64,000 nt of DNA, taken from NCBI RefSeq assembly GCF_003334315.1, contig NZ_QOWR01000005.1; one strand, given 5' to 3'. The notes under the pieces are model-generated. The model was not told the DNA's origin. It saw only the letters and a list, made by a program, of their open reading frames with translations, and did not search any database. A program made the translations under genes and the position numbers. This stretch comes from Escherichia coli (GTDB taxonomy: Bacteria > Pseudomonadota > Gammaproteobacteria > Enterobacterales > Enterobacteriaceae). Every line of letters starts with the position of its first letter. Position 1 is the stretch's first letter. Below, in pieces: positions 17,911-18,195 of this stretch.

Positions 17911-17931
17911 TTATCCGTAAGTATTTTATCT

Positions 17932-17963
17932 GCCATTCCCTCTATGAATGTAGAGGGAATGGC
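17932..17963 (+). other. Perfect 13-bp inverted repeat (stem-loop) in the der-yfgJ spacer
   Basis: GCCATTCCCTCTA-tgaatg-TAGAGGGAATGGC; no T-run follows, so it is not a canonical terminator. Confidence 0.6.
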
Positions 17964-17979
17964 TACCGGAGGAATTCAT

Positions 17980-18195
17980 ATGGAACTGCATTGTCCACAA
18001 TGTCAGCATGTGCTTGATCAGGATAACGGCCATGCGCGTTGCCGATCCTGCGGGGAATTTATTGAAATGAAAGCTCTTTGTCCAGACTGCCATCAACCGT
18101 TGCAGGTGTTAAAAGCCTGTGGTGCAGTAGATTACTTCTGTCAGCACGGGCATGGCTTGATATCGAAAAAACGCGTTGAATTCGTGCTGGCTTAA
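17980..18195 (+). CDS. yfgJ: Zinc-ribbon small protein YfgJ
   Basis: 71 aa from the ATG at 17980 with a GGAGG SD; two CxxC pairs (CPQC...CRSC, CPDC...). Confidence 0.85.

Follow-up and report, generated by a model that had tools for sequence, protein, structure and literature searches.

The window analysed here is a stretch of 64,000 nucleotides of Escherichia coli DNA (contig NZ_QOWR01000005.1, assembly GCF_003334315.1), in which der and yfgJ are read in the same direction and xseA converges on yfgJ (Table 1). A 170-base query taken from the window matches E. coli K-12 MG1655 at 100%. The initial annotation of this DNA had described a perfect 13-bp stem-loop between der and yfgJ, and both the coordinates and a repeat search agree with that description, the inverted repeat having 13-nt arms that are 100% complementary and a 6-nt spacer. 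It had also described an overlap of the yfgJ stop codon with that of the convergent xseA, which can be read directly from the sequence: the two codons share positions 18193–18194, and the coding sequences overlap by 4 nt. The overlapping coding ends leave no space in which a terminator could separate the two genes, as had been stated.

Table 1. Features of the der–yfgJ–xseA locus (positions in the window; a dot marks a feature without strand)
Feature	Position	Strand	Basis and remarks
der (ribosome biogenesis GTPase Der), 490 aa	16438..17910	+	ORF list; MG1655 RefSeq annotation of the 100%-matching region
der stop TAA	17908-17910	+	Sequence reading; 21 nt separate it from the hairpin
Divergent haplotype block: intergenic region, yfgJ, last ~180 nt of xseA	17905..18370	.	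Sliding identity
Hairpin	17932..17963	Forms on both strands; + (der-sense) RNA favoured across alleles	Structure, z-score, covariation
Hairpin left arm, GCCATTCCCTCTA	17932-17944	+	Sequence reading
Hairpin loop, TGAATG	17945-17950	+	Sequence reading
Hairpin right arm, TAGAGGGAATGGC	17951-17963	+	Sequence reading
yfgJ Shine-Dalgarno, GGAGG	17968..17972	+	Sequence reading; 4 nt past the hairpin, 7 nt ahead of the ATG
yfgJ, 71-aa double zinc-ribbon protein (Pfam Zn_ribbon_6; solved structure 2JNE)	17980..18195	+	ORF list, annotation
yfgJ ATG	17980	+	Annotated RefSeq start agrees
yfgJ stop TAA	18193-18195	+	Sequence reading
xseA (exonuclease VII large subunit), 456 aa, convergent with yfgJ	18192..19562	-	ORF list, annotation
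xseA stop (+ strand TTA, - strand TAA)	18192-18194	-	Sequence reading
TTAA, overlap of the yfgJ stop (+) and the xseA stop (-)	18192..18195	.	Sequence and ORF coordinates
Candidate 3' stem-loop of yfgJ-sense RNA, 10 pairs, 17-nt loop	18222..18258	+	Predicted fold; ends 26 nt upstream of the Rho peak

The hairpin is stable as RNA of either strand. The + strand folds at -25.0 kcal/mol (z = -7.5) and the - strand at -23.9 kcal/mol (z = -7.9), and in neither case did any of 200 shuffles fold as well, while perfect 13-bp inverted repeats with loops of 3–10 nt are expected by chance at a mean of 0.01 per 64-kb mononucleotide shuffle. In the K-12 fold, UCCG (17914–17917) also pairs with CGGA (17966–17969), touching the yfgJ Shine-Dalgarno (SD) sequence. 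The stem itself is of the kind found in intrinsic terminators (G+C-rich, at least five pairs, short loop), with 13–14 pairs and a loop of 4–6 nt. A T-run, defined as at least five T in 8 nt starting 0–2 nt past the stem, was found on neither strand by a terminator scan or by a second scan with the same rule, and the tail after the K-12 stem, TACCGGAGGAATTC, contains none within 0–2 nt. A cmscan search of positions 15000–21000 against Rfam, with E up to 10, gave no family match at the hairpin; its sole return, RF02405 at 20675–20795, is a chance hit that scores 17 bits where the gathering score is 44. In 5426 complete E. coli genomes searched by blastn (word size 11, E up to 10), the hairpin occupies a median of one and a maximum of two places per genome, all of them chromosomal. 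A dispersed repeat such as REP, BIME, BoxC or MITE was rejected, since E. coli genomes have the hairpin as a single copy. Elsewhere in the window CCCTCT..AGAGGG recurs only at 22865–22884, and this match is an unrelated canonical terminator.

Within E. coli, the perfect K-12 version is carried at 99% identity or more over all 44 queried bases by 1540 of 3667 carrier genomes, and the largest identity band, 95–99%, comprises 2115 of the 3667. In both variants read from this band, those of APEC O78 and O157:H7, the right arm is one base short, so that a U bulges out of the stem; the O157:H7 variant additionally carries an A-to-G change that produces a U·G pair. The bulged stem of the variants read folds at -20.3 kcal/mol, compared with -25 kcal/mol for the perfect stem. 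Because the variants read from the largest band have a bulged stem, the perfect stem is not under strong selection. A longer yfgJ reading frame (83 aa, from an ATG at 17944 in the hairpin loop) was rejected, since the 1-nt deletion of APEC O78 and O157:H7 would shift its frame and the RefSeq start of yfgJ lies at 17980. Conserved sequestration of the yfgJ SD by pairing of the hairpin flanks was also rejected: this pairing belongs to the K-12 fold only and is absent from CE10-type folds. In other Escherichia alleles, 17–22 nt lie between the end of the stem and the yfgJ ATG.

Across alleles the pairing is kept and der-sense RNA is favoured. Six Escherichia alleles align in register with 96.4% of cells paired and with both sides changed in 5 of 14 pairs, values reached by none of 500 shuffles; this covariation spans few lineages, the division between the K-12 type and the rest being essentially one event, and it is drawn from Escherichia alleles only, as the stems of Trabulsiella, Siccibacter and Citrobacter are out of register with them. 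When the partner is slid by one column in the six-allele alignment, pairing drops to 67–71%. Every wobble in the Escherichia alignment is a U(5')·G(3') pair, for which the opposite strand has a C·A mismatch. The stems of SF-166 (-21.9 kcal/mol der-sense, -15.7 xseA-sense), E. albertii (-22.4 and -15.9) and HS-02 (-18.3 and -10) all fold better as der-sense RNA. A symmetric scan of 35 enterobacterial loci, those with a der–yfgJ spacer of at most 235 nt, found the der-sense hairpin to be the more stable strand in 31, with 52 G·U pairs over the 35 loci in der-sense RNA against 13 on the opposite strand. Structure, not sequence, is conserved, and the hairpin behaves as a conserved RNA structure favouring der-sense RNA. 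Compensatory changes in a palindrome could also come from templated (quasipalindrome) mutation without selection.

The same slot is occupied throughout these 35 loci. The der stop is followed within some 30 nt by a strong hairpin whose stem reaches approximately -15 kcal/mol or better in 35 of 35, although its sequence has turned over completely. The conservation check proposed with the initial annotation came out in favour of the hairpin, both in this stem present at every locus and in the pairing kept across the six Escherichia alleles. In 14 of the 35 loci, from Atlantibacter, Buttiauxella, Kosakonia, Erwinia, Pantoea, Prodigiosinella, an Enterobacteriaceae MAG (UBA5654, L016) and a metagenomic contig, this hairpin is a canonical terminator, its T-run on the der-sense strand, whereas only three loci show such a site on the opposite strand. 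The T-run is absent from all nine Escherichia loci and from the Salmonella, Citrobacter Awk4, Trabulsiella and Siccibacter loci. The earlier view that a stem without a U-tract looks less like a terminator than like another kind of element held as to the tract, which is missing on both strands, but not as to kinship, the slot being that of a canonical der-sense terminator elsewhere. The Salmonella slot contains a stem that looks like REP (judged by eye only), and that of Enterobacter kpr-6 contains tandem GC-rich palindromes. Retention of the hairpin is independent of adjacency to xseA: CE10-type E. coli, E. albertii, E. whittamii and Escherichia sp. E1V33 all retain it, CE10 with an island of about 11 kb between yfgJ and xseA, and the other loci examined with a sinH or inverse-autotransporter gene after yfgJ, or with no xseA within 2.5 kb.

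Like the hairpin, the overlap of the yfgJ and xseA stop codons is real and conserved but ordinary, and the overlap is already catalogued. End-to-end arrangement of the two genes is widespread in Enterobacterales, with spacings of 1 nt in Citrobacter, 3 in Buttiauxella, 4 in Atlantibacter and in a record labelled C. freundii, 4–5 in Pluralibacter, -4 in Leminorella and -17 in Klebsiella pneumoniae. The idea that the overlap is a deletion scar of island loss was rejected in view of these tight or overlapping ends, and the arrangement is the normal, ancestral-looking one. Sliding identity, mostly at least 0.9 outside the surrounding haplotype block, falls to 0.42–0.67 within it, and the block sets K-12-type E. 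coli apart from strains with a sinH-sinI-ratA (ila/CS54-like) island between yfgJ and xseA. As the stop codons overlap, each transcript must end inside the neighbouring gene. Table 1 of the ExcludonFinder paper includes xseA–yfgJ as one of 165 convergent excludons in MG1655, a pair being counted when its RNA-seq coverage overlaps in half or more of 58 transcriptomes (PMC12288877). This listing, the 4-nt overlap of the coding sequences and Rho peaks located past each other's coding ends all indicate that the neighbouring transcripts overlap.

Published Rho data place the two ends (Adams et al. 2021, PMC7815308), here converted to window positions (w) by g = 2653794 - w, a map verified on two other 3' ends. 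The peak on the der/yfgJ-sense + strand, w18284 (MG1655 2635510, - strand), lies 89 nt beyond the yfgJ stop, antisense to xseA and 321 nt past the hairpin, and the peak on the xseA-sense - strand, w17874 (MG1655 2635920, + strand), lies 318 nt beyond the xseA stop, 58 nt past the hairpin and antisense to the der 3' end; the resolution of both is limited by 800-nt windows. Supplementary file 2 of that study gives 110/17 reads without BCM and 126/74 with BCM for w18284 (Rho score 3.8, p = 2.3e-6), and 259/26 and 472/533, respectively, for w17874 (Rho score 11.2, p = 2.6e-45). The latter is the strongest local Rho region. Bicyclomycin-dependent read-through is found downstream of the stem on both strands. 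The overlapping 3' regions predicted in the initial annotation are borne out by these two peaks together with the excludon listing, while the antisense interference it raised is a catalogued possibility. Base composition differs between the strands, the + strand past the yfgJ stop having a C-over-G bias (C 34, G 22) and the xseA-sense strand showing no such rut-like bias in the 132 nt past the stem (C 25, G 27).

Term-seq gives a sparser picture. The curated 3' ends of the same study, which cover LB at OD 0.4, LB at OD 2.0 and M63 and depend on the authors' read threshold, include none at MG1655 26354xx–26358xx and hence none at the hairpin on either strand; strong ends are listed at the bamB–der hairpin and weaker ones inside xseA (PMC7815308). 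Because no curated end falls at the hairpin despite detected ends nearby, a stable der 3' end at this site is either rare or under the Term-seq threshold. Mapped 3' ends were also sought in the TERMITe and SMRT-Cappable-seq supplements, where the search terms are absent. The candidate stem-loop downstream of yfgJ, a possible exonuclease stop for der–yfgJ transcripts according to its predicted fold, has no Term-seq 3' end in the lists of Adams et al. 2021 (PMC7815308). The earlier suggestion of an RNA stability or processing element is upheld in respect of a conserved RNA structure, as seen in the compensatory changes and the der-sense U·G pairs, while its role is inferred and the curated Term-seq lists hold no end at this point.

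The preferred explanation, which is given an even chance of being correct, is that the hairpin is a der-sense RNA structure in a terminator slot, a descendant of a terminator that has no U-tract and allows transcription into yfgJ. Because the same slot is a canonical der-sense terminator in 14 of the 35 loci, the hairpin is best seen as a relative of terminators and not as a separate kind of element. According to this model, RNA polymerase would mostly pass the hairpin into yfgJ, whose ribosome-binding site begins 4 nt past the stem, and Rho would end the transcript approximately 90 nt beyond the yfgJ stop, within antisense xseA, as the published Rho data suggest. The stable stem would block 3'-to-5' exonucleases and act as an intercistronic stabiliser, marking the 3' end of the der message after the yfgJ portion has decayed; in this way the hairpin may protect the der 3' end. 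U-poor stem-loops have been shown to shield Rho-dependent transcripts against both PNPase and RNase II (Dar and Sorek 2018, PMC6061677). A more elaborate proposal, considered very improbable, is that in K-12-type strains the perfect palindrome serves both convergent transcripts, giving a stabilised der 3' end and a capped xseA 3' UTR of about 270 nt that is fully antisense to yfgJ, and that hairpin and overlap together, by way of double-stranded RNA and Rho, link the expression of Der, the zinc-ribbon protein and exonuclease VII.

Other explanations assign the stem to no present function or to the opposite strand. It is conceivable, though rather doubtful, that the hairpin does nothing today, being either the remnant of a decaying der terminator or a palindrome whose symmetry templated mutation maintains, and tolerated since Rho terminates transcription. 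Loss of the U-tract in Escherichia, Salmonella, Citrobacter, Trabulsiella and Siccibacter loci would fit such decay, as would the lack of a mapped 3' end at the hairpin in the PMC7815308 lists, the 2115 of 3667 carriers whose hairpin departs from the perfect K-12 one (the two variants read being bulged or wobble-containing) and the free turnover of the slot to REP-looking or tandem palindromes in Salmonella and Enterobacter kpr-6. However, all 35 loci keep a stem that folds at about -15 kcal/mol or better despite this turnover, and the one-sided U·G pattern fits selection on one RNA strand, not neutral decay. In another reading, an unlikely one, the hairpin is the protective 3' stem-loop of a Rho-terminated xseA mRNA, with Rho stopping in antisense der and exonuclease trimming stalling at the palindrome. 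This reading draws on the strong Rho region w17874 just beyond the hairpin, on the perfect K-12 stem, nearly as stable in xseA-sense RNA, and on a missing U-tract like that of the class described by Dar and Sorek. It is opposed by the clearly weaker xseA-sense stems of SF-166, E. albertii and HS-02, by retention of the hairpin where an island puts xseA about 11 kb away, by the absence of any - strand Term-seq end at w17922–17931 in the PMC7815308 lists, although xseA-sense ends are detectable elsewhere, and by the lack of C-over-G bias downstream.

Two further explanations look from the hairpin towards yfgJ. Its closeness to the SD and ATG, and the UCCG/CGGA pairing that touches the SD in the K-12 fold, would suit a 5' element of a yfgJ-specific transcript, acting as a stabilising stem or as a modulator of SD access, and a pangenome study reports an association of yfgJ expression differences among E. 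coli isolates with cis non-coding variants and predicted promoter strength (bioRxiv 10.1101/2025.06.10.658842). Such an element is quite improbable: a promoter scan found no sigma-70-like + strand site near 17900, the SD-touching pairing is missing from the CE10-type fold, and the stem of the other Escherichia alleles ends 17–22 nt ahead of the ATG. A protein-binding site, raised in the initial annotation and suggested by the perfect inverted repeat (13 bp, 6-bp spacer) directly ahead of yfgJ, would be a DNA operator whose dyad is bound by a dimeric protein controlling yfgJ or blocking transcription. This is extremely unlikely, given that the half-site sequence varies among alleles while pairing is kept, that U·G positions spoil the DNA symmetry, and that in both of the commoner E. 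coli variants read, those of APEC O78 and O157:H7, just one of the arms is a base short, so that the dyad is shifted and broken; in addition, blastn at the sensitivity used found no second copy in E. coli genomes.

Among known systems, the hairpin may be compared with the der intrinsic terminator of Atlantibacter, Pantoea, Erwinia, Kosakonia, Buttiauxella and Prodigiosinella, which it resembles in slot, strand preference, stem length and folding energy, and from which it differs in having neither a T-run nor a mapped 3' end and in being followed directly by the translation signals of yfgJ. Intercistronic REP/BIME stem-loops stabilise upstream mRNA, for example in malE–malF. The hairpin shares with them a stable stem between co-oriented genes, the absence of a terminator tail and a proposed block to 3' exonucleases, and the Salmonella stem in the slot reads, by eye only, like a REP unit; in contrast to REP/BIME, the E. 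coli hairpin is single-copy and has no match to the REP consensus. The protective stem-loops of Dar and Sorek 2018 (PMC6061677) are likewise stable and U-tract-less with a bicyclomycin-sensitive region nearby (at this hairpin 58 nt downstream, xseA-sense), but the steady-state 3' end that defines that class is not present at the hairpin in the curated Term-seq lists on either strand, the xseA-sense strand has no C-over-G bias, and the der-sense Rho region comes 321 nt on, past a translated gene. Convergent excludons owe their regulatory meaning to mutual repression and RNase III processing, and xseA–yfgJ qualifies by transcript overlap, the two regulatory effects being putative for this pair. 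If the preferred explanation is true, the occupant of one intergenic slot has been by turns a canonical terminator, a stem lacking a U-tract or a REP-like stem, with structure kept and sequence not, and the locus would show Rho taking over termination where convergent genes leave no intergenic space. No new mechanism is opened by these results, which add a small annotation to the der, yfgJ and xseA transcripts of a model organism and locate precisely the edge of the haplotype block that is associated with the ila/CS54 adhesin island.

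The stem-loop between der and yfgJ is a perfect 13-bp inverted repeat whose arms, GCCATTCCCTCTA and TAGAGGGAATGGC, complement each other around a TGAATG loop exactly where the initial annotation placed them. The RNA folding energy is -25.0 kcal/mol for the + strand, which is der-sense, and -23.9 kcal/mol for the - strand (z about -7.5 to -7.9); 0 of 200 shuffles folded as well, and perfect 13-bp inverted repeats with a loop of 3-10 nt are expected 0.01 times per shuffled window. A terminator scan found no T-run past the stem on either strand, confirming the missing U-tract for which the stem-loop had been taken as an RNA processing or stability element, or a protein-binding site, rather than a terminator. 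A 170-base query (17861-18030), running from the end of der through the spacer into the start of yfgJ, is 100% identical to E. coli K-12 MG1655. YfgJ is a double zinc-ribbon protein of 71 residues (Pfam PF07191, E = 1e-28) with a solved structure (2JNE). An extended yfgJ ORF of 83 aa (17944-18195, +), starting from an in-frame ATG within the hairpin loop, was rejected as non-coding because a 1-nt deletion in the right arm of APEC O78 and O157:H7 would break its frame.

Features of the bamB-guaB region, in window coordinates
Feature	Position	Strand	Source
bamB	15142-16320	+	ORF list, RefSeq annotation
bamB-der hairpin	16341-16370 (tail to 16380)	+	
der	16438-17910	+	ORF list, RefSeq annotation
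der-yfgJ hairpin, left arm	17932-17944		
der-yfgJ hairpin, right arm	17951-17963		
yfgJ	17980-18195	+	ORF list, RefSeq annotation
Stop-overlap inverted repeat	18165-18220	both	
xseA	18192-19562	-	ORF list, RefSeq annotation
Further predicted stem-loop	18222-18258		
guaB	from 19655	+	ORF list, RefSeq annotation

By blastn, the 44-nt hairpin was found in 3667 of 5426 complete E. coli genomes. Carriers have it at a median of one place, always chromosomal, which rules out a dispersed repeat. Only 1540 of the 3667 carriers have the perfect K-12 version (match of at least 99%), and another 2115 match at 95-99%. Two variants were read from the latter band, APEC O78 and O157:H7; one right-arm A is absent in both, leaving a bulged U, and O157:H7 has an additional A-to-G change that gives a U·G pair. 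These variants fold at -20.3 and -19.7 kcal/mol, respectively. About 1200 further genomes gave a megablast match restricted to bases 1 to 46-51 of the 170-base query, which is the der end.

CE10 and SF-166, both among these der-end-only genomes, have another yfgJ allele (63% protein identity), another intergenic sequence, and sinH instead of xseA downstream of yfgJ. In CE10, sinH, sinI, and a large adhesin gene, about 11 kb in total, lie between yfgJ and xseA. A published comparison named the xseA..yfgJ region GR17 and gave the ila cluster (sinH, sinI, ratA) a probable descent from the Salmonella CS54 island (PMC12928451). The CE10-type intergenic region has its own hairpin at the equivalent position (GGTTTCCCTTTCC-ACAC-GGAGAGGGAAACC; -24.1 kcal/mol, z = -6.5). 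The core TTCCCT...AGGGAA is common to the K-12 and CE10-type hairpins, and changes on both sides distinguish the stem base (GGT/ACC vs GCCA/TGGC) and the stem top (C-G vs A-U). In a gap-free alignment of six Escherichia alleles (K-12, CE10, SF-166, a further E. coli record, E1V33, and E. albertii), 96.4% of cells are paired and both sides have changed in 5 of 14 pairs; none of 500 shuffles attained any of five measures, and sliding the 3' partner by one column lowered pairing to 67-71%. The stem has been kept through paired changes, in few lineages and with K-12-type versus the rest amounting to roughly one event. This supports a conserved stem rather than proving selection, because the lineages are few and templated mutation can also yield matched changes in a palindrome.

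The slot just past the der stop, ahead of yfgJ, was compared across Enterobacterales. A YfgJ-alignment scan of the genome collection gave 55 loci, to which Salmonella, E. albertii, and a metagenomic contig were added by protein look-up; the final set, including E. coli records from earlier searches, comprised 35 loci with der directly upstream of yfgJ. All 35 have a strong hairpin no more than about 30 nt past the der stop. It is a textbook der-sense terminator in 14 loci, for example in Atlantibacter (CGGGGCCGAAAGGCCCCG-TTTTGTC), Pantoea (GGGCCCAGCAGGGCCC-TTTTTTTT), and Kosakonia (CACCCGCCGCTGGCGGGTG-TTTTGTTT), and an opposite-strand terminator in only three. The initial contrast with terminators is weakened by these 14 loci, while the missing U-tract stands. 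Stems without a T-run occupy the slot in all nine Escherichia loci, Salmonella, Citrobacter Awk4, Trabulsiella, and Siccibacter; the core CCCT(C/T)TCC...GGAGAGGG is common to the stems of Escherichia, Trabulsiella, Siccibacter, and Citrobacter. By eye, the Salmonella enterica stem (AGGCCTGACAAGC...GCTATCAGGCCT; L065 2415-2470) resembles a single REP unit. In the Enterobacter sp. kpr-6 slot (L026 2335-2500), palindromes of the CCCTCTCCC...GGGAGAGGGTTAGGGTGAGGGG type are repeated in tandem over 166 nt (-109 kcal/mol); their family was likewise judged by eye. Comparison of the 35 loci therefore shows a stem that keeps its position and strength through turnover of its sequence and, probably, of its origin. 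The simplest history is that der formerly had an ordinary terminator in this slot, whose U-tract has since gone in the lineages lacking a T-run.

In every wobble pair of the Escherichia alleles, read on the + strand, the U lies in the 5' arm and the G in the 3' arm; the same positions are C·A mismatches on the - strand. The + and - strands fold at -21.9 vs -15.7 kcal/mol in SF-166, -22.4 vs -15.9 in E. albertii, -18.5 vs -15.0 in O157:H7 under this strand comparison, and -18.3 vs -10.0 in strain HS-02. A best-hairpin scan of both strands found the der-sense hairpin the stabler in 31 of the 35 loci, with 52 der-sense G·U pairs vs 13 on the opposite strand; these loci are non-independent, nine being Escherichia, and the direction of the bias is consistent regardless. 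The hairpin is best read as a der-sense RNA feature.

At the far end of yfgJ, its stop codon (18193-18195) and that of xseA (18192-18194, complement) share two bases within TTAA, as first described. This overlap was considered and rejected as a K-12 peculiarity or deletion scar. Short gaps and overlaps occur in many other genera, so tight yfgJ/xseA convergence is widespread: the gap is 1 nt in two Citrobacter loci, 3 in Buttiauxella, 4 in Atlantibacter and in a record labelled C. freundii, 4-5 in Pluralibacter, and 6 in a Klebsiella MAG, with overlaps of 17 nt in K. pneumoniae and 4 nt in Leminorella. UBA3516 has a 33-nt spacer with a canonical bidirectional terminator; where the gap is wider still, it contains either an insertion of about 1.2-1.4 kb or the adhesin island. 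An inverted repeat of Lys/Arg codons from both genes (GAAAAAACGCG...CGCGATTTTTTT) spans the TTAA. With its A-tract, interrupted stem, and U-tract inside coding sequence, it resembles a weak bidirectional terminator; similar complementarity occurs in Citrobacter and Atlantibacter, and no Term-seq end is listed at the repeat.

Published transcript maps were placed on the window (w) by g = 2653794 - w, where g is the MG1655 coordinate on the opposite strand, verified on the guaB 3' end (2632596, w21198) and the bamB-der hairpin 3' end (2637422, w16372). An xseA-sense Rho region peaks at 2635920 (+), w17874 (Rho score 11.2, p = 2.6e-45; upstream/downstream reads 259/26 without and 472/533 with bicyclomycin), and a der/yfgJ-sense region peaks at 2635510 (-), w18284 (score 3.8, p = 2.3e-6; 110/17 vs 126/74); both peaks are approximate because they derive from 800-nt windows (Adams et al. 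2021, PMC7815308). Each peak lies beyond the end of the opposing gene, in agreement with the overlapping 3' regions originally proposed. The peaks imply that xseA transcripts extend about 318 nt beyond their stop, over all of antisense yfgJ and the hairpin, and that der/yfgJ transcripts reach about 89 nt into antisense xseA, both being ended by Rho. With yfgJ and xseA so tightly convergent, transcripts must end inside a neighbouring gene, and antisense interference may result. The stop overlap is already published at catalogue level, xseA-yfgJ being among the 165 convergent excludons of MG1655 (ExcludonFinder, PMC12288877). The curated Term-seq lists for three conditions have no 3' end at 26354xx-26358xx, so the hairpin has no listed end on either strand; among the ends that they do include, the one at the bamB-der hairpin is very strong and those inside xseA are weak (PMC7815308). 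Processing at the hairpin gains no 3' end from these lists.

The hairpin is an unannotated but ordinary representative of a known kind. Stable, U-poor stem-loops shield Rho-dependent transcripts from PNPase and RNase II, and the steady-state ends of these transcripts lie just past such stems (Dar and Sorek 2018, PMC6061677). The chances are about even that the hairpin acts in der-sense RNA as a relative of the der terminator that lacks a U-tract. With the U-tract missing, polymerase would mostly read on into yfgJ, whose Shine-Dalgarno begins 4 nt past the stem, and Rho would terminate about 90 nt beyond yfgJ, where the sequence has 34 C vs 22 G and a further stem-loop is predicted. The der hairpin may then block 3' exonucleases, as do intercistronic REP stems, which are barriers to these enzymes.

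The absent Term-seq end counts against a strong effect of the hairpin. That it is a relic with no present role is unlikely. Transcripts of xseA run across the hairpin, which could cap their 3' UTR; this is rather improbable, and the strand bias points to der-sense RNA. Its closeness to the Shine-Dalgarno would suit a 5' element of a yfgJ transcript, a role that seems quite improbable. A DNA operator would draw on the perfect symmetry of the K-12 repeat, and it is very hard to credit beside the der-sense G·U pairs.

Between K-12 and CE10, identity in xseA is mostly 90-100% until about w18360; it then drops to 0.42-0.67 from the end of xseA through yfgJ and the spacer as far as the last der codons. 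This divergent block of about 465 bp (window about 17905-18370; CE10 loci L001 and L004), outside which identity is mostly at least 0.9, separates K-12-type strains from carriers of the sinH-sinI-adhesin (ila/CS54-like) island. K-12-type YfgJ proteins form a tight cluster (at least 88% identity) to which all others are at most 75% identical, with no close relative outside E. coli. The remaining Escherichia species compared have CE10-type yfgJ alleles. Downstream of yfgJ, E. albertii and Salmonella have an inverse-autotransporter gene, and the 2.5-kb flank contains no xseA in either E. whittamii or Escherichia sp. E1V33. Because CE10-type alleles occur in other Escherichia and K-12-type YfgJ clusters apart, the island-free K-12-type block probably reflects replacement by a divergent allele, not a simple deletion. 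The block in HS-02 is a third haplotype that shares 83% identity with the K-12 type. Its hairpin is a hybrid (GCTTTCCCTTTC-TGAAC-GGAGAGGGAATGGC; L062 392-452), and yfgJ and xseA again meet end to end; the annotation gives frameshifts in both genes, which makes the assembly quality doubtful. Island strains have a different xseA end (…KSRKPRKKA), and CE10 xseA has its own terminator-like hairpin, AAAAAAGCCTGATA-gcgcgttgcg-TATCAGGCTTT, overlapping the stop codon (L004 20010-20060). A contig labelled Candidatus Ligilactobacillus excrementavium ends in a stretch 100% identical to the K-12-type spacer and yfgJ start (L054 2432-2609), almost certainly E. coli contamination in a lactobacillus-assigned MAG.

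The bamB-der spacer contains a canonical terminator-like hairpin, GAAAACGGCTCCTGGACAGGGGCCGTTTTC then CTGTTTTTAA, with a very strong "orphan" Term-seq end at 2637422 (-) (44142 and 40317 reads; PMC7815308). Given the strength of this end, much bamB transcription stops or is processed just ahead of der, and the hairpin looks like an attenuator for der. Term-seq 3' ends are also listed inside the xseA ORF, at 20 and 57 nt from its start (1247 and 1585 reads; MG1655 2634252 and 2634289 (+), window about 19506-19543 (-); Adams et al. 2021, PMC7815308), a hint that transcripts are terminated early or processed there.
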